A DNA stretch of 64,000 nucleotides from a virus (Duplodnaviria; Heunggongvirae; Uroviricota; Caudoviricetes): the IMG/VR virus record IMGVR_UViG_3300028886_000053; one strand, given 5' to 3'. Shown in pieces: positions 1,721-49,134 of the stretch. Numbering within the stretch: the stretch's first letter is position 1; each line of letters opens with the position of its first letter. The position numbers and the translations under genes are program-made. The notes beneath the pieces are model-generated. The model did not search any database. It was not told the DNA's origin and saw only the letters and a list, made by a program, of their open reading frames with translations.

Positions 1721-1793
1721 TCACCCACCTGGGGGTCGAACCCAGCCCTGCTGATTTAGAGTCAGCTGTCTTAAACCGCTTGACTAGTGGGCG
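1721..1793 (-). tRNA. tRNA-Sup(CUA): amber suppressor tRNA (anticodon CUA, reads UAG). D-arm resembles tRNA-Gln.
   Basis: Reverse complement is CGCCCAC-TA-GTC-AAGCGGTTTAA-GAC-A-GCTGA-CTCTAAA-TCAGC-AGGG-CTGGG-TTCGACC-CCCAG-GTGGGTG-A. The anticodon stem is a perfect 5 bp and the loop is 7 nt with CUA at positions 34-36. The D-loop AAGCGGU matches the bacterial tRNA-Gln D-loop (GCCAAGCGGUAAGGC). Confidence 0.8.
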
Positions 1794-6018: not shown

Positions 6019-6753
6019 TACTCCTTTTTACTCTTTTGTTTACGTTTTCTTTATCTTATGTATATATTATATCAAAAAATTTTCAAGAAGTCAAAAAAAT
6101 TGAATAACTTAACTATATCTATGAATACAGGTCTTCACCTTACCAAAACTATTCTTCAAATATATTCGACCACTAAGGAAACATACCTGAGGAGAAAGGA
6201 GCGACCTTTCACCTATATGCCCCAGTTCATAAGAACCAATTCTTAGAGGGGATTGCTTACCCTTAACTTTCAGCTACCTTTCAGTAAGTATTGTGAGAAA
6301 GAAATCCTAATCTTGCTCAAAATATAACCAATTTGTCTTTGCAGATTTAGCCTACTCGTACCCTGACCTAACCTTATACACGACTTTCATCGCTTCAACT
6401 GCGAAATCCCTTATTTGGATTTTCCAAGGTTTGACTAGTTTTCCACGCTACTTCCTAACTTGGATTGGTGCTTTTGTTAGAAACCCCATATTGCGGGACC
6501 GATTAGAACAGTGTCTTTATTTGCGAATAATCTCAGTGCTACTAGCCAGAACCCTCCCGTTCGTTTGGGCGTTCTATATATCACTATATAAAACTTTTAA
6601 AGTAAAAACGTATCCGTCGTTACTCAGTTATTCACTTATGGCTATCATACCTCAGCCCTATGGAATTAGGGTTTATCACTGAGTTGATTCATAAATATAA
6701 TTAAGTTATTCAATTTTTAAGGTTCTGAAATATGTTAGAATATCTAACTTTAA

Positions 6754-7241: not shown

Positions 7242-7315
7242 TAGCCCCTGGGGGAGTTGAACCCACCATCTTGACCTTGAAAGGGTCATATCCTGTCCCT
7301 TTAGAAGAAGGAGCC
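7242..7315 (-). tRNA. tRNA-Glu (anticodon UUC)
   Basis: Acceptor GGCTCCT/AGGGGCT with two G-U pairs. Anticodon stem TGACC/GGTCA, loop CTTTCAA. T-loop TTCAACT. Confidence 0.6.
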
Positions 7316-8090: not shown

Positions 8091-8101
8091 AATGATTTTT
8101 A

Positions 8102-8173
8102 TCACTCCTAAGAGATTCGAACTCTTATCTTAACACTGAGAATGTCATATCCTTGCCTTTAGACGAAGGAGCG
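8102..8173 (-). tRNA. tRNA-Glu (anticodon CUC)
   Basis: Acceptor CGCTCCT/AGGAGTG. Anticodon stem TGACA/TGTTA, loop TTCTCAG. T-arm AAGAGTTCGAATCTCTT. Confidence 0.6.
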
Positions 8174-8559
8174 ATAGGGGTTATACCCCTTGTTCTACTC
8201 GAACATAATTTTCTGTTACTTCATAATGAATTCTTCCGAATCTTTCTTCCAAAAACCGTACCTGTGAGAAACCTTTCACAGTTATTAAATGCTTTCTGTT
8301 TCTGTCGTCAACATATGTAACCACGTAAATCACTTCGTTCTTATTCATTTGAAAGTCCTCCACATGATACTGTTTTTTACATTATTATTATAACAAAAAT
8401 TTTTATTTTTTACAAATAAATAATTTATTGAGTGCATGGAAGAAAACGCTTCACGTTTTGGCTATAATTTTAGCTATTTGCTACCGCAAATCTCTCAATA
8501 AATAGTTTTAAGGTCAACCAACCGCACATCTTTTTATCATCGCTTTTGCTAAGATGAAA

Positions 8560-11304: not shown

Positions 11305-11337
11305 AATATTTTTCTCCTTTAGTTAAAAATACAACCA

Positions 11338-11417
11338 CATTAGGAATCGAACCTAAACTACTCCCTGCGGGGCGTGCTACGCGCTTAAATTAACTTCCAT
11401 TACACTATGTGGCTAGT
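11338..11417 (-). tRNA. tRNA-like gene with long variable region (type II-like). Anticodon unresolved.
   Basis: Acceptor AGCCACA/TGTGGTT. T-arm TTAGGTTCGATTCCTAA. The internal GC-rich segment does not give an unambiguous anticodon stem. Confidence 0.3.
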
Positions 11418-30650: not shown

Positions 30651-31679
30651 CAAAAATTCAGTCTTCATAGACAATATCAGCATAGCCATCTTTCATTTCA
30701 AATTCATAATCATGATTGGCAATAGCAAAGCAAGCATTTGTAAAATCTTCATCTTCCTCAAAAATTGTAGATAACTGAGAAAGAATACTTACTAATTCTT
30801 CAGACACGGTTAAAGTGCGATTCATTTCAATTTTCATTTTTTATCACCTCATTTTTTTATTTTATTTAAATAGGATAGGTAGGAGTCGAACCTACATCTT
30901 GCCAAGTGTTTTCCCAATTAAACTACTTTAATGGAATTCGAATCCATATCTCTCGGCTGTGCTTCCCGATGTCACTTACTATCCTTTATTAATTTGCGTC
31001 CATCCTACCAGCCTGGGGGTTCCAGACGCTCCCCGCATGTTGCCTCACATTTATATACCGCAAAGTAGGACTTCGGCTTGCGGTGGTGGGACTTTATCAA
31101 CAGGACTTACTGCGACAACTTGGCGTCTTGGGTCTTTCCCTTGCCTGTATCCCTCATCTTGTATATTTATTATATCAAAGGGGTTGGAGTTTGTCAACCC
31201 CTTTTTTTAAATTCTTGCCTTGATTTCAGCGATTTTTGCCAAAGTCTTGGGACTTGCCTTGGCAAGACGCTCCGCCTGTTTCTTAGGCTTTTCCGCAAGA
31301 TACTTATGTCTTGCCATCTCCTCATCGGGCGGAGTGATATTAATAAAAGCAAAGATTGCATCGCCGTACTGATTAACAGGTGTCCAACATACTCTTCTCA
31401 TAATCTTATCTCCTTTTTTGTGATTTGTTTTCCTCTTGATGATTTTATTATAGCATTTTATTTGATTTTGTCAAGGGGTTTTTTCTGCAATCCGTTAATT
31501 TTTTTTCGTTTAAGGAGCGACCTTAGCGGAGTTGAACCGCCCACCCATCAAGGCTTGCCTTGGGCTACCCTTCTCCCCTTGACAATTATAATTATAAATG
31601 AATATTATTAAAAATACAATATCGGAATATTGCACAAATTATGGGATCTATAATTAAATATTTTTATTCAAATTTCTTA

Positions 31680-42044: not shown

Positions 42045-43225
42045 TGGAGGATTTAAAATTTTATTCTAAAAAAAACGGAGATAAATTTGATATGTGCAAG
42101 TAGTGTTTAACTATGCACGTTGATAATTATAATGAAGATACTTTTTTATGGATAATAGAATAGGCAGATCTTCCTTGGGTACCTAGCGAATGGAACGCTA
42201 TTAGATAGAAATAGTATGCCAAAAAAGGCAGAAAAATGAATGGAATGAGTGTTGTCGGAAAATATTTTTCCAAAATGAGGTTAAATCAATGGAAGAAATA
42301 TAATTGGGCAACGAGTGCGGAAGCACAAGAGGAAGCTAATCTTAACAAGTAGTTTAAAGAAGAGCAACAAAAACAATTAGAGTAGAAGTTAAAAGAAGAT
42401 TTTGAAAAGGGTTAGATTACTTAGTCACAATATCGAACTTTAGTTTCTTCTAGTTTTCAGAAGTAGCATTAGTATATGATGCGGCCGGCCGGTTAGGAAG
42501 AGGACCCGGTTGGTAAAGATAATGCCTTTAGATAGGAATATTTCTTATCGGAAGAGGATTTACCCGATCCCGCAGCTGAATTAACAAAAGAAGATAAACA
42601 ATATTTGGCAATGAAATGGGGTCGAAATTATAAACCTAGTCAATGGTTATTGCTTGAAACCAAGTACACCGAAATGATGAATTCATTTGACATTCAGGAT
42701 GCAGATAGTAAAAATACATTAATGTTTATTTGTAAAACATATTTAAAAATGGATGAAGCAATTGATATAGGTGACGTTGAAAGTTATCAAAAACTATCCC
42801 GTGTCTATGATCAGTTACGTAAGTCTATGAAAGTAACGGCCGCGCAAAAGAAAGAAGAGAATAATTAGTTTATAGATTCAGTTGGCTAGTTAGTTGCCTT
42901 TTGTTAGAAACATGGACATGTGATACCTGAATTTTAGATAAAAGCTCCTCATGATATAGTTGATAAAGTCATAAATGATATGAAGGGTTATAATAGATCT
43001 TTGATTTATGAAGACAAAGCCCTTGCTAGACAAATCGAAGATTATATTAAAGAAGCGCGTGCGGCAGCTGCTAGAAAGAAAGACCGAGAATAGGCTAAGA
43101 AGAGAGGCTAGGATTATTATACAATTACAGATAAAGATATTTTAGATTATAAAGACTTCCTTCATAGTGAAAAAATATGGACAGAAAAAGAAATGAAGGG
43201 AGAGGATAACAATGAGTCTTAGTAA
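42008..43225 (+). CDS. late protein with N-terminal zinc ribbon, TAG-recoded (about 19 in-frame TAG). Possible terminase small subunit by position.
   Basis: ATG 42008 (SD AAGGAGGAG), MAKKKCSKC-Q-RVMEDL...DMCK-Q-CLTMHVD. The frame includes fragment 42605..42868 and ends TAG-TAA at 43220-25. It immediately precedes terL. Confidence 0.4.
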
Positions 43226-43560
43226 TATTTTAGATCAATATATTTAGCATGACACTAAAAAACAAGGTTTATCTGAAGAAAGGCTTCTTGATCAATTAGA
43301 CAATCTAAGATATTTAATTAGTTTTTTTAGAAAATATCCTGACCTTTTGGTAGACTATATGAAAGGACCAGATAGTACCTTCCATTTTTATTTTTATCAA
43401 AGAGTTTTCCTTAGAATAGTTATGCGGCACCGATACGTTTATGCAACGTTTCCGCGTGCTTACTCTAAATCATTTTTGTCAATGATGGCATTAATGTTGA
43501 GATGTATATTATATCCTGGGGCGCAATTATTTGTTACTACTGGTGGTAAAAGTATTATTT
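43212..43560 (+). CDS. terL: terminase large subunit, exon 1 (ATPase N-terminus with P-loop-like ATFPRAYSKS)
   Basis: Frame from ATG 43212 includes fragment 43347..43565 (MKGPDSTFHFYFYQRVF...ATFPRAYSKSFLSMMALM...VTTGG). The exon end is approximate. Confidence 0.55.
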
Positions 43561-44597
43561 TATAATTTTATAAAAAAGGGAGGAGCATTATGAGTGCAAA
43601 AAACGTCCTATATAATTTTGAAACGATTGATACAGAGGAAAAAGCTTATTGGTTAGGTTTTTTATATGCAGATGGTTCAGTTGGGTCTAAAGATGACCGA
43701 ATTGAATTAGGTTTAGCAGAAAGAGATTTTCATCATATTGAAAAATTTAGAGATTTTATTGGTATAAATAATAAAATTTCTTATCGAGAAAAAACAAAAT
43801 CATATCGTTACGCTTTTAAAAGTCAAAATTGTAAACAAGATTTAATTAGACAAGGATGTGTTCCTAAAAAATCTTTAGTTTTAAAATATCCTACTTATGA
43901 GCAAGTTCCTAAAGAATTAAGTAGACATTTTATTAGAGGGTATTTTGATGGAGATGGATGGTTTACAAACACAGAATCTTGTTTTCAAGTGGGAATTATT
44001 GGAACAGAAGATTTTATTAGGGGATTCCTTAATAATATAGATGATATAAATAAAGATAATAAAATATTTATTTGTCATCGAGAAGAAGGAGCTAAAAGAT
44101 ATGTTTTTGGAGCTTATCAAGATGTTTTAAATTTTTTAAATTGGATTTATCAAGATGCAACAATTTATCTTGATAGAAAATATGAACATTATTTAGATTT
44201 TATAAATAATGGAAGTAAATATCATAAAAATATAAAATAAAATTTGCCGTATAATATAGAAATATATTATATGATTATCGCGGAATTAAGCGGGAAGGCT
44301 GAAATGCTAATCTGAACCGAAGGCTAGTTAAAAAACTGGTCAGGGGCAACGCGTAGGAGGTGAAAAGATATAATCCTCCCAAGAGGCCGCGACACAAAGA
44401 TTTATAGAATCTTTTGAGATTATCTCACCAATAATCAAACCTAACGTTAAAACGAGGGTGAAAATGTACGCTGAGCTTACATGAATTAAAAAATGTAAGA
44501 ATTAAAGGATAAAAAACCTTTAAGATAACAAAACTGAAATAGCAGGCGGCTAGTATTACCGTGGCAAAGATAGAATAGATATGTAAGTTAATACCAG
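43561..44597 (+). other. group I intron 1 in terL carrying a LAGLIDADG homing endonuclease ORF
   Basis: An intact standard-code ORF is followed by a GC-rich structured core (gggaaggctgaaatgc...gtcaggggcaacgcgtaggagg) in an AT-rich gene. The terL frame resumes at about 44598. Confidence 0.5.
43590..44240 (+). CDS. LAGLIDADG homing endonuclease (two-motif, intron-encoded)
   Basis: ORF track, 216 aa. Motifs LGFLYADGSV and FIRGYFDGDGWF. No TAG. Confidence 0.75.
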   Translation: MSAKNVLYNFETIDTEEKAYWLGFLYADGSVGSKDDRIELGLAERDFHHIEKFRDFIGINNKISYREKTKSYRYAFKSQNCKQDLIRQGCVPKKSLVLKYPTYEQVPKELSRHFIRGYFDGDGWFTNTESCFQVGIIGTEDFIRGFLNNIDDINKDNKIFICHREEGAKRYVFGAYQDVLNFLNWIYQDATIYLDRKYEHYLDFINNGSKYHKNIK

Positions 44598-44880
44598 CTT
44601 TAAGTAATTAGATAAACTGGAATCGTGGTGTATCTAAAAAATCTAAGGATGATGTTAATTATGTATTTAAAAATGGTTCCGTTATAAATATCTTGGCTGC
44701 TAAAGAAAGCAGTAGAGGACAAAGACGTACTGGTGGATTAATGGAAGAATGTGTTTTAATTGACCAGACGGCTTTAAACGAAATTATTATTCCTACTACA
44801 AACGTAGATAGATTACTACCAGATGGAACACGACATAAAGAATAGATTATTAATAAGTCACAGATTTACATTAACTTTTT
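44598..44880 (+). CDS. terL: terminase large subunit, exon 2
   Basis: Frame reads ...VFKNGSVINILAAKESSRGQRRTGGLMEECVLIDQTALNEIIIPTTNVDRLLPDGTRHKE-Q-IINKSQIYINFFEQS with one TAG. Boundaries approximate. Confidence 0.45.
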
Positions 44881-45949
44881 TGAACAAAGCGTTATAAAAA
44901 TATGTGCTTAAAAATTATATATAATAGAACAAAAAAAGGAGGTTCTATTATGTATTATATTTATAAAATAGAAAATTTACAAAATCATAAAAAATATATT
45001 GGATTAACTAATAATATAGCAAGAAGAAGAGCTAGACATTTTACTGATTTAAGATGTAATCGACATGATAATGGTTTTCTTCAAAAAGAATTTAATATTT
45101 ATGGAGAAAATAATTTTTCTTTTGAAAAAATTTTTGAAGGAGATATTACAGAAAAAGAAATAGGAGAGAAAGAAAAAGAGTTTATTAAATTATATGATAG
45201 TTATAGAAATGGGTATAATCAAAATGAAGGTGGAAATTTTGGACCGTCTAATGGTGGAAGTCATTTAACGCAATCGGATATTTATAATATTTGTTCTGCA
45301 TTAGAATTTTGTTCTAGACCAGGAGGCGTGCTATCAGATATGTTTGAAGTTTCTTTAACTACTATTTCTAGAATAAAACAAGAAGTAAACCATAATCAAT
45401 ATATAAATGAATATAAAAATATGTCTTTAGAAGATCGAAAAGCTATATATAAAATATTTTGTGAAAGTTCTAATTTTTATGAAAAGAAAATTAAACAAAC
45501 TATTATAAAGTCTAAAAGACAGCTTACGAAACAGCAGGTTTTTATGATTTTATATAATTTTGAAAATAAAGTTGTTACTTACAAAAAAATGGCAGAAATT
45601 GTTGGAGTAGCAAGCACATATACTTTAGATTGTATAAAAAAAGGATTAACCTATAAAGATTATTCTTATGAATATAATCAACTTAATAACGAAGAAAAAC
45701 AAAAAATAGTGTCGTTATTCAGTAATGAATAATTGTAAGCCATTGAATTGCTGGGAACCCCTTATTAAAAGGGCAATCAGCAGCCAAGCTCTTTATAAGA
45801 GAAGGTTCAACGACTATCCTGAAAGGGAGTACACTCAAGCGAGTGGAAGCGGTGGCCCCCTACTTGAAAAAGAGGGTGAAGATATAGTCTACTCTGCATG
45901 TATATATAAAGATGCAGCAGTTCATAAGAGAACGCATATAGTTTAGCGA
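44881..45949 (+). other. group I intron 2 in terL carrying a GIY-YIG homing endonuclease ORF
   Basis: A HEG ORF is followed by a structured segment (gggaaccccttattaaaagggc...gagtggaagcggtggccccc). The terL frame resumes near 45950. Confidence 0.45.
44950..45732 (+). CDS. GIY-YIG homing endonuclease (intron-encoded)
   Basis: ORF track 44902..45732. The likely start is ATG 44950 after SD AAAGGAGG. Motif YYIYKIENLQNHKKYIGLTNN...R...H...E. No TAG. Confidence 0.7.
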   Translation: MYYIYKIENLQNHKKYIGLTNNIARRRARHFTDLRCNRHDNGFLQKEFNIYGENNFSFEKIFEGDITEKEIGEKEKEFIKLYDSYRNGYNQNEGGNFGPSNGGSHLTQSDIYNICSALEFCSRPGGVLSDMFEVSLTTISRIKQEVNHNQYINEYKNMSLEDRKAIYKIFCESSNFYEKKIKQTIIKSKRQLTKQQVFMILYNFENKVVTYKKMAEIVGVASTYTLDCIKKGLTYKDYSYEYNQLNNEEKQKIVSLFSNE

Positions 45950-47030
45950 ACTATATGGAATACAAGGAACAACGGCGGGTTGGAAGAATTCATTTGCGTA
46001 TGACAAATTAATAGAACTTTTAATTAGAAGTTTAATATAGCCTGATGAAGTTATGATAATGGGAGGAACTTATGAGACTCCTATTATTGAAGGATTGTTA
46101 AATGAAGACTTTGTATAGCAGTTAAAAATGGCTGGCACTTTCAATGAAGATTCATTTGATAGATAGTATAGAAGTATATGGTCGGGCGATGCAGAAAATG
46201 CGTTCTTCTCTGCCTAGAAATTTGACAAGTATAGAACACTTAGACAACCGTAGTACGAATATAGCGGCCGCACCAGTAAAAATGCTTACTATGTCATTGG
46301 AGTTGATGTAGGTCGTATTGGATGTACAACCTAGGCCTGTATTTTTAAGGTGACGCCGCAACCTCAAGGAGTTGCATTGAAGTCTCTTGTAAATATATAT
46401 ACTTATGAGGCATAGCATTTTGAATAGCAAGCTATAAATATTAAGCAACTGTTTTATAGATATAAAGCTAGATCAATTGCATTAGATACTAATGGTCTTG
46501 GAATAGGTCTTTTAGACTTTATGGTAAAGGCCCAGGAGACACCAGATGGATAGTATCTTCCACCTTTTGGTATTTAGAATGATGATTAGGGTATTTATAA
46601 GAAATATTTTAAAGGTGTAACAGATGTTCAAAAAGATGCTATTTTCCAAATTAAAGCTAATGCTCCTATTAATACATAGGCATATTCATTTGCTCAGACT
46701 CAAATGTCAAGTGGGAAGATTAAATTTTTAATTGATGAAGCAGAAGCAAAAGCTAAGTTAATGGAAACTAAACAAGGTCAAAACATGACGCCTGATAAGA
46801 GAAATGAGTATTTGAAGCCTTTTGTTCTTACTACTATTTTAAGAGAACAAACATTGAATCTCGTTGAAGATAACGAAGGTGTTAATATTATTTTAAAACA
46901 AGAGAATAGAGGTATTAAAAAGGATAAATTCTCTTCTTTTGTTTATGGATTATATTATATTAAACAATAGGAAGATAGAAGAAAAAAGAGAAAAGGAAGA
47001 GATATTAGTAAACTTCTCTTATTTTCTTGA
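45950..47030 (+). CDS. terL: terminase large subunit, exon 3 (RNase H-like nuclease domain), about 14 in-frame TAG
   Basis: Frame contains YYVIGVDVGRIG, DTNGLGIGLLD and KFLIDEAEAKAKLMETK, and includes fragment 46704..46970. If the TAG at 46968 is read as sense, the protein ends at TGA 47028-30. Confidence 0.55.
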
Positions 47031-47103: not shown

Positions 47104-47463
47104 ATGAGAAGTTCACGAGCAGAAATAAAGATAGAAGAAATTTTGTCAAATGCAGGTCTTAACTTTAAAGAAGAGTATAGTTTTCCTGACTTAATAGGAC
47201 AGGGAGGTCATGCCTTAAGGTTTGACTTTGCTGTCTTTGATGATGATGATGAATTGGAATTTTTGATTTAGTATCAGGGAATCCAACATTATAAAGCAAA
47301 AAGTATCTTTGGCGGCGTTTCTGGGCTAAATAAGCAACAGTATTATGATATGCAGAAACGTTAGTATTGTAAGAAGCATGGGATTAAATTAATCTTAATT
47401 CCGTATTGGGACGAGAATTTAATTACATATGATTACATTATGGAAAAAGCGGATATTTTTTGA
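47104..47463 (+). CDS. DUF559-type (Vsr/restriction-endonuclease-like) nuclease, 2 in-frame TAG. One TAG sits at the conserved IE.DG glutamate.
   Basis: MRSSRAEIKIEEIL...YSFPDLIGQGGHALRFDFAVFDDDDELEFLI-TAG-YQGIQHY...YDMQKR-TAG-YCKKHGIKLILIPYWD matches the DUF559 pattern (ILDFYCPE..LAIELDGSQHY...YDQRR..WL...GI.VLRF). Confidence 0.55.
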
Positions 47464-47475
47464 TGAAAGGTTAAG

Positions 47476-49134
47476 GTGACTTCTTTGATAAATAGAGCAG
47501 CAGAAATAAGAAAACAAAATTTAATGCTAGAAGGCACCGGCAATGGGAGATTAGATTATTCAAAAATAAGAGTTGGAGCTAAAACACTTGAAGATGCAAT
47601 TTTAAATATTGGAGAATATAAAAGAATCAATCCTATTCTTGGTGATAAAAAAGAAGTATTAATGGCGATTAATACTGGTGATGTAGAAAGAATGAGATAG
47701 ATTTCTAATTTCTTTTATAAGACTAGTGGTATCTATGCTAGATTATGTAGATATATGGCATATTTATATAAATATGATTGGTTTATTACTCCATATATTG
47801 AAAATTGTGAAGGTTTACTTGATCAGGATAGCGGCCTGGGTGACGTCGGGGCAGGCTAGACTTAGGCAGATAATAAAGCCCGCAAAAAACAATTTGCTAA
47901 TTTCTTTAAAGTATTAAAATATTTTGAAGCATTTTAGGTAAAAAGATTTTGTGGTGAAGTTGCTCTAAAAGTCATCAGACATGGTTGTTACTATGGATAT
48001 TTAATTCCTAGACCAAATAAAATGACTATTCAAGAGTTGCCTATTAGATACTGTCGTACTCGTTATAAGGTTGACAATAGACCAGTTGTTTAGTTTAATA
48101 TGCACTATTTTGATGATCATTTCCATGATGAGAGACAGCGGCAAGCAATTTTAAAATTGTTCCCGCCAGAGTTTAAAAAGGGATATAATTTATATCGTAA
48201 AGGTAAATTAATGCCAACTTTTCCTGGTGATACTCCAGGATGGTATTTATTAGACCCTAAGAGTACAATTAAATTTAATCTTAATGATTAGGATTATCCA
48301 GCTTTTATTTCTGTTATCCCTGCTATTATCGACTTAGATAATGCTAAAGATTTAGATAGAAAGAAAATGGCTCAAAAGTTAATGAAAATTATTATTCAAA
48401 AAATGCCATTAGATAAAAATGGTGATTTAGTATTTGATATTGATGAAGTTGGAGAATTTCATAATAATGCAGTTAAAATGCTTACAAGAGCGATAGGAGT
48501 AGATGTTTTAACTACTTTTGCGGACGTTGATGTCGCTGATATGTCAGATCGAGGTACTACAACTACTGTAGATGAATTAGCAAAGGTAGAAAGAGGAGTT
48601 TATAATGAAGCTGGTGTTTCACAGCAACAATTTAATAGTGATAATAATACTGCTTTAAATAATTCTATTCTTAATGATGAAGCATCTATGTATAATCTTT
48701 TAGTACAATTTGAGTCGTTTTTAAATTTAATGCTTGAACAATTTAACAAATCTCCAAAGAAATGTTATTATCAAGCACAGTTTTTAACAACTACTATCTA
48801 TAATTATAAAGATTTAGCAAAGTTGTATAAAGAACAGGCGCAAATGGGATACAACAAAATGTTACCTCAGGTAGCACTTGGACAAACTCAAAGCTCAGTA
48901 TTAGCTAATGCGTACTTTGAAAATGATATATTAGATCTTGTCCGTGTATTTGTTCCTCCGCTTACTTCTAATACAATGAACGCTGAAGCACTACAAGCGC
49001 GGTCTGCGGCTACACGCGGAGGCTCGGGTCAAGCGGGAAATACTCCAGGTCAATCTGGAGAAGGGGCCGGCCGCCCTTAGAAATAGGATAATCAAAAAAG
49101 TGAAAAAACATTACAGAATAGAGAAAGTATGTAA
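47476..49134 (+). CDS. portal protein, TAG-recoded (about 8 in-frame TAG), GTG start, ends TAA
   Basis: One frame links fragments 47476..47700, 48100..48291 and 48367..49080, then continues through two TAGs to TAA 49132-34. Its position between terL and the scaffold/capsid genes supports the call. Confidence 0.55.

Follow-up and report, generated by a model that had tools for sequence, protein, structure and literature searches.

The stretch of DNA analysed here (hereafter, the window) comprises 64,000 nt of the viral record IMGVR_UViG_3300028886_000053 (Caudoviricetes), and has a G+C content of 33.8%. Approximately 25 tRNA genes and a tmRNA gene form an array on the minus strand at 0.36-11.5 kb, which is followed by early genes (14.7-40 kb) that are short, lie on the minus strand and, according to the ORF map, are almost free of in-frame TAG, and by a late-gene block on the plus strand (Table 1). 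The late ORFs with homologs, up to 57.6 kb, contain 341 GAA, 83 GAG and 92 TAG codons, i.e., TAG represents 92 of 516 (18%) presumed late-gene Glu codons and exceeds GAG; the capsid, tube and terL-insert endonuclease genes contain zero TAG. In the early and tRNA regions, TAG sites were too few for a code call, and a scan of all six frames for recoded TAA or TGA was too noisy. SPbeta-type Pfam families (YonG, YonD, YonB, YomW, YomV and YomU) are encoded beside the homologous genes in other assemblies, and the nearest cultured relatives of the portal protein infect Enterococcus, Bacillus, Lactococcus and Clostridioides. A locus search by the capsid protein alone retrieved close relatives only.

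Table 1. Coordinates of the nuclease gene, its neighbours and the tRNA genes considered in the decoding of TAG (window positions).
Feature	Position	Strand	Remarks
Amber suppressor tRNA, anticodon CUA	1721..1793	-	73 nt; ARAGORN and Rfam; tRNA-Glu architecture
Phage tRNA-Glu(UUC)	7242..7315	-	Rfam; missed by ARAGORN
Phage tRNA-Glu(CUC)	8101..8174	-	CGCTCCT...AGGAGTG-A, i.e., C1-G72, G2.U71, C3-G70, A73
Late-gene block, TAG as sense codon	40824..64000	+	ORF map; long frames need TAG read-through
Terminase large subunit, C-terminal part	45912..47030	+	Upstream neighbour; 14 TAGs; PHROG 2 and 5909
Vsr-like PD-(D/E)XK nuclease gene, free-standing	47104..47463	+	119 codons, TGA end
TAG codon 56 of the nuclease gene	47269..47271	+	Glu of the E-x-Q-G-x-Q-H catalytic signature, strand 3
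TAG codon 87 of the nuclease gene	47362..47364	+	Conserved Glu/Arg column, helix 71-90
Portal protein gene	47524..49134	+	Downstream neighbour; 8 TAGs; PHROG 2739 (phrog_2739), 1.4e-70

Other RNA genes were recorded on the minus strand of the window. Inside the tRNA array lie a full-length ROOL RNA (6109-6707, 297 bits) and the tmRNA gene (2279-2561), whose tag reads GGTENLYCD. A tRNA-like gene at 528-600 has an 8-nt anticodon loop, for which ARAGORN gives the four-base anticodon 'tagg', and the tRNA-Ala(AGC) call at 11331-11415 is unusually long (85 nt). Far from the array, a weak 62-nt Rfam tRNA match missed by ARAGORN was located at 30871-30932. No tRNA-Gln gene was found in the window.

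The nuclease gene sits between terL and the portal gene, as described in the initial annotation of this DNA, and the PHROG assignments of both neighbours agree with this position. Its product displays the alpha-beta-beta-beta-alpha-beta core of the Vsr-like fold, with an acidic residue in strand 2 and a (D/E)-x-K-like triad in strand 3. The Pfam DUF559 model (PF04480) gave no match above its gathering score to the window nuclease or to 46 homologs, and an hhalign comparison of the nuclease profile with YcjD was not significant; thus, from the former designation "DUF559 (Vsr-like)", the fold is retained and the family label is considered loose. The motif comparison aligns D41 ... E56(TAG)-Y-Q-G-I-Q-H62 of the nuclease with D...E-L-D-G-G-Q-H of YcjD, with Gln replacing Asp. 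The nuclease is set apart from DUF559 proteins (E. coli YcjD, NGO0050) by its lack of a Pfam DUF559 match, and from Vsr, I-Bth0305I-type and DUF559 nucleases by a Gln that takes the place of the Asp following the catalytic Glu, and by a longer hairpin connecting strand 2 to strand 3. The PHROG names, the fold match to I-Bth0305I and two other endonuclease genes nearby suggest that the gene product is probably a homing endonuclease. The terminase large-subunit gene (43212-47030, plus strand) is itself split into at least three pieces by two TAG-free ORFs, one for a LAGLIDADG endonuclease (43590-44240) and one for a GIY-YIG endonuclease (44902-45732), and three endonuclease genes (LAGLIDADG, GIY-YIG and Vsr-like) are found within 4 kb. 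No group I intron was detected at terL by Rfam at the gathering threshold.

The presence of an amber codon at the conserved Glu of the nuclease, previously noticed from the window alone, was confirmed. The DNA of 80 further loci was fetched, and codons were read in 67 distinct homologous genes. At codon 56, these genes carry GAA (38), GAG (7) or TAG (22), and never CAA or CAG; at codon 87, they carry GAA (20), GAG (13) or TAG (14), Arg codons (17) being most of the rest, with no Gln codons. Furthermore, the relatives' own TAGs fall at Glu codons 7, 11, 12, 23, 50 and 104 of the window nuclease. A database search yielded 621 nuclease homologs, and in the best 120 of these, position 56 is occupied by E or Q only (65 and 55, respectively), and position 87 mostly by the same two residues (87 and 29). 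A candidate explanation, namely that the Q of these database homologs corresponds to real CAA or CAG codons, was ruled out by the DNA: in two homolog clusters (DNA in loci L001 and L002), TAG is located exactly where the database protein prints Q. The Q in the database proteins (P0001-P0120) appears because the genes were called with code 15. The seeming contradiction of having a stop codon, or a Gln, at the catalytic Glu is resolved since TAG in this phage most likely encodes Glu and not Gln, judging from the alignments and the tRNA described below; the TAGs of the nuclease gene would be ordinary Glu codons, and the enzyme would be made with its normal catalytic Glu at codon 56. In the absence of a suppressor, translation of the nuclease would terminate at codon 56, leaving the catalytic strand unfinished.

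An all-versus-all alignment of the TAG-read-through ORFs of the window and 84 loci was used to tally the sense codons opposite each TAG. Among the 88 window TAG sites with at least 3 aligned sense codons, a majority residue was obtained at 49, corresponding to Glu at 39 sites and to any other residue at 2 or fewer. When 86 window TAG sites were compared with 38 standard-code relatives, the opposite residue was Glu in 45%, Asp in 8%, Lys in 6% and Gln in 5%. As controls, the window GAA/GAG codons faced Glu in 50%, Asp in 11%, Lys in 7% and Gln in 7%, and its CAA/CAG codons faced Gln in 45% and Glu in 9%. The TAG sites were also scored under the empirical profile of each residue, derived from the 38 relatives without recoding, with log-likelihoods of -195 for Glu, -247 for Gln and -248 for Asp. 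Of the two alternatives raised in the initial annotation, the insertion of a residue other than Gln is therefore borne out, and an E-to-Q enzyme produced by Gln insertion is disfavoured by the 52 units separating both profiles; a predominance of Gln opposite TAG, under which the Gln assignment would have stood, was not observed, because the tally overwhelmingly yielded Glu, without Gln enrichment. From the traits that define code 15, we found in-frame TAG with conserved downstream frames and a CUA tRNA, but not the alignment of TAG to Gln in standard-code homologs. The approximately 5% of TAG sites opposite Gln is the share expected for Glu columns, and some minor insertion of Gln at UAG may still take place.

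One objection to these results is that the TAGs are real stops, the nuclease and late genes being pseudogenes or the TAGs assembly errors, for which there is nothing beyond the standard-code reading itself. We regard this explanation as hardly credible, given that frames are kept well past each TAG with 57-99% identity in dozens of independent assemblies, that a CUA tRNA is present, and that the TAGs are gathered in late genes and nearly missing from the early region. The reading of TAG as Gln (code 15) has more in its favour: it is the default assumption in the literature, public databases translate the genes studied here in this manner, and the distant relative phAss-1, whose suppressor has U1-A72 and G73, is reported to use TAG as Gln. 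According to it, the nuclease would carry Gln at its catalytic position and be inactive, attenuated or tolerant of the change. Nevertheless, the window sites follow the Glu profile instead, CAA and CAG never occur at codon 56 in the 67 genes, and the suppressor itself points away from Gln, as detailed next.

The window encodes a CUA tRNA with an acceptor end composed of C1-G72, G2.U71, C3-G70 and A73 in its cloverleaf; a D arm with U8, a 3-bp stem (G10-C25, U11-A24, C12-G23), unpaired A13/A22 and an 11-nt loop; a 4-nt variable loop in which residue 47 is absent; and the anticodon loop C-U-CUA-A-A. Its D-arm motif, GTCAAGCGGTT(N)AAGAC, was scanned in 185,579 bacterial and archaeal genomes and found at no fewer than 120 loci, nearly all of Bacillota; among the matches listed (112 bacterial tRNAs), 110 carriers were tRNA-Glu and 1 was tRNA-Gln. 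Bacillota tRNAs among the matches listed display distinct patterns: tRNA-Glu typically has G1-C72, G2.U71, C3-G70, A73, a 3-bp D stem and a short variable loop; tRNA-Gln has U1-A72, G2-C71, G3-C70, G73 and a 5-nt variable loop; and tRNA-Asp has G73, a 4-bp D stem and a 5-nt variable loop. None of the tRNA-Gln acceptor-stem marks (G73, U1-A72, G2-C71, G3-C70) is present in the suppressor. Conversely, it agrees with Bacillota tRNA-Glu at 2-71, 3-70 and 73, and differs at 1-72, where C-G replaces the usual G-C; C1-G72 also occurs in 10 of 66 tRNA-Glu genes of the family and in the phage's own tRNA-Glu(CUC). Inspection of positions 73, 1-72, 2-71 and 3-70, singled out in the initial annotation, thus revealed the pattern of tRNA-Glu(CUC), with the same discriminator and first three acceptor pairs, and an anticodon one base away from CUA. 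[quoted passage not shown] Regarding the YUC anticodon and A37 of tRNA-Glu, the suppressor keeps C34, U35 and A37, and the change of C36 to A is what makes it a suppressor.

Isotype HMMs were built from the tRNAs of the family, masking the anticodon; they classified correctly 31 of 33 held-out tRNA-Glu, and gave no useful information on the remaining suppressor types or on phAss-1. In these crude models, the window suppressor scored 27.2 for Asp and 26.3 for Glu, which constitutes a tie. Such a tie, and the fact that Asp is the second commonest residue opposite TAG, are the arguments for TAG encoding another acidic or related residue, Asp or Lys; however, the Asp and Lys profiles are 53 and 66 log-likelihood units below that of Glu, respectively, and the Asp pattern is excluded for the suppressor because of its A73, 3-bp D stem and 4-nt variable loop, which makes this option very improbable. 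D-loop and acceptor features, rather than the model score, group the window suppressor with tRNA-Glu. The tRNA regions of more Glu-type genomes, i.e., those in which TAG falls on Glu columns, were reached via a conserved neighbour of the tRNA array. No tRNAs were found within 10 kb of the nuclease gene at the homologous loci. Three further genomes (contigs of L020, L064 and L027) carry Glu-like CUA tRNAs (L270, L271 and L274), for which the tRNA-Glu model scores best (32 vs 27, 44 vs 32 and 43 vs 24 bits, respectively). Their anticodon stems differ from the stem used as search query, and the arms vary widely. In several relatives, the suppressor adjoins the tRNA-Glu(UUC) and tRNA-Glu(CUC) genes. 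A blastn search of the suppressor against GenBank phages gave no match, and ranking bacterial tRNAs by whole-sequence identity to it did not separate the isotypes.

Based on these features, we propose that a glutamyl-tRNA synthetase, presumably that of the host, would charge the CUA tRNA with Glu. The window shows no evident gene for a synthetase or a release factor, and all of its ORFs are too short for a synthetase. The suppressor retains the GluRS identity elements U35, A37, U11-A24 and the missing residue 47, with C34 being natural in tRNA-Glu(CUC), and departs from the published Glu identity set only at C36 and the modifiable U34; the published identity rules agree with a Glu-type suppressor (PMC9976931). 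Moreover, amidotransferases need U1-A72 to convert Glu-tRNA-Gln (PMC9976931), and since the suppressor does not have this pair, its Glu should not become Gln. C36 is a strong determinant for the E. coli GluRS, so that charging of a tRNA with A36 would need a tolerant enzyme; this tolerance is assumed here, and G36 in place of C36 is already tolerated by non-discriminating GluRS. Many Bacillota have no GlnRS and rely on a non-discriminating GluRS. Once accumulated, the suppressor would compete with release factor 1 at UAG, and the TAG-containing late genes would consequently be completed only after such accumulation. The contrast in TAG usage between early and late genes is consistent with a published proposal in which recoding holds back late-gene expression until enough suppressor is present.

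A mixed product could also be considered, in which UAG is decoded mainly as Glu, with appreciable Gln or Lys due to mischarging of the CUA tRNA, or with frequent termination. In E. coli, tRNAs with the CUA anticodon are classical examples of tRNAs easily mischarged by GlnRS and LysRS, U35 and A73 are common to the Lys identity, and release factor 1 competes unless inhibited. On the other side, TAG is found at invariant Glu columns, both catalytic and structural, and accounts for 18% of the presumed Glu codons of essential late genes, and this placement and usage would favour faithful decoding; we therefore consider ambiguous decoding unlikely, even if it is the least improbable of the alternatives discussed. 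Integrating the alignments and the suppressor features, our preferred reading, with an estimated probability of about 0.85, is that UAG stands for glutamate in the late genes of this phage, which is SPbeta-like, roughly 130-150 kb in size and a phage of Bacillota.

Other branches of this phage family gave different results with the same approach. At 11 loci (L065, L070, L072, L073, L075-L080 and L084; Gln-type), TAG falls on Gln columns, including nuclease codons 58, 61, 78, 79 and 84, and Gln was the best residue by 19-38 log-likelihood units in the seven loci tested. Gln-type genomes include IMGVR_UViG_3300028888_000060 and 3300045988_175607, and IMGVR_UViG_3300028591_000104 is of the Tyr type. 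At two loci (L071 and L083; Tyr-type), TAG falls on Tyr columns, including nuclease codons 88 and 101; Tyr accounted by weight for about 10 of 19 and 9 of 16 sites and was best by 11-14 units, and the codons opposite TAG were TAT (423) and TAC (64 or 56). Apart from these loci, in two contigs whose suppressor has a U1/U72 mismatch and G73, TAG was opposite CAA at 9 of 24 sites, with 0 Glu-majority columns. The method can thus separate Gln from Glu, given that the same procedure returns Gln or Tyr in other branches; it is not blind to Gln, and together with the profile scores and the missing tRNA-Gln marks, this makes Gln decoding in the window quite improbable. In a neighbour-joining tree of the portal protein, the Glu-type loci group into a single clade that is nested among relatives of standard code. 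The second main branch contains the Gln-type loci, interleaved with others of standard code, and the Tyr pair is monophyletic within it. On balance, we favour a scenario in which UAG was captured for three amino acids within one family of large Bacillota phages, i.e., for Glu in the monophyletic clade of the window by a suppressor derived from tRNA-Glu, for Gln in the other branch, and for Tyr in the pair nested there, all interleaved with standard-code relatives.

Additional suppressor-like tRNAs were observed among the loci. Class II CUA tRNAs, with a long variable arm and A73, are present in L091, L093, L098, L115, L118 and L126, which are IMG/VR contigs of 30-38 kb; they carry the anticodon arm of the window suppressor, and could be Tyr-, Leu- or Ser-type suppressors of another phage group. 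Besides, tRNAs with a UUA anticodon were found in L326 (IMGVR_UViG_3300021431_000113), L316 and L312; that of L326 resembles a tRNA-Glu with C36 changed to A (51.6 bits for Glu vs 30.3 for Gln), and is possibly an ochre suppressor that would insert Glu. UCA-anticodon tRNAs of 95-97 nt occur in L272, L279 and L321, where the apparent variable arm is a second anticodon-like hairpin with the loop CUCCAAA (Trp CCA); at the few TGA sites of these loci, Cys was most often opposite (3/10, 5/12 and 3/8, respectively).

Stop recoding in phages is currently treated as two codes, TAG as Gln and TGA as Trp, which are hard-wired in gene callers. If our reading is correct, UAG as Glu would constitute a genetic code so far undescribed in any virus or prokaryotic system; no report of it in a virus or bacterium was found among the full-text papers searched, which include few subscription journals. 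In that case, all database translations of late proteins of this clade would carry Gln-for-Glu errors, often at catalytic or metal-binding residues, as with the Q printed at the catalytic Glu of the nuclease in 55 of the best 120 homolog clusters, and code-15 metaproteomic searches would miss the peptides that reveal the code. In this one family of phages, the amino acid given to a recoded stop seems to have changed, which offers a natural system for codon capture: GAG to TAG, CAG to TAG and TAY to TAG require one base change each, as does each matching anticodon. The CUA tRNA, a naturally occurring amber suppressor with Glu as its predicted amino acid, might serve as a tool.

Phage amber recoding with CUA suppressors is well known and has been described as Gln ("in most cases" in the Borges preprint), and a survey of 180 phage suppressor tRNAs predicted the isotypes Gln, Trp, Ile and Tyr, with none for Glu (PMC10879173). 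Similar to code-15 gut phages (crAss-like, Lak, Agate and other clades, as well as phAss-1), the phage studied here has its TAG concentrated in late structural genes and almost TAG-free early genes, encodes a CUA suppressor within a tRNA array, and shares a gut or rumen origin and standard-code hosts, its own host being presumed to use the standard code. Unlike those phages, for which Gln has been reported or validated, both the comparative signal and the tRNA point to Glu, and the phAss-1 suppressor (U1-A72, G73) contrasts with that of the window (C1-G72, G2.U71, A73). The closest natural precedent of Glu assigned to UAG only is the ciliate Oligohymenophorea sp. PL0344, in which UAG is Glu and UAA is Lys (PMC10553269). 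As in PL0344, UAG alone would be reassigned to Glu via suppressor tRNAs, with another stop kept; in contrast to that eukaryotic nuclear, genome-wide code, the phage recoding is limited to late genes, and TAA and TGA remain stops. In the peritrich and Blastocrithidia codes (NCBI tables 30 and 31), UAA and UAG both encode Glu. These codes resemble the proposed phage system in that a stop was captured by a tRNA-Glu whose anticodon is a single base removed from one for Glu, and differ from it in that both UAR codons were changed, whereas in the window only UAG was.
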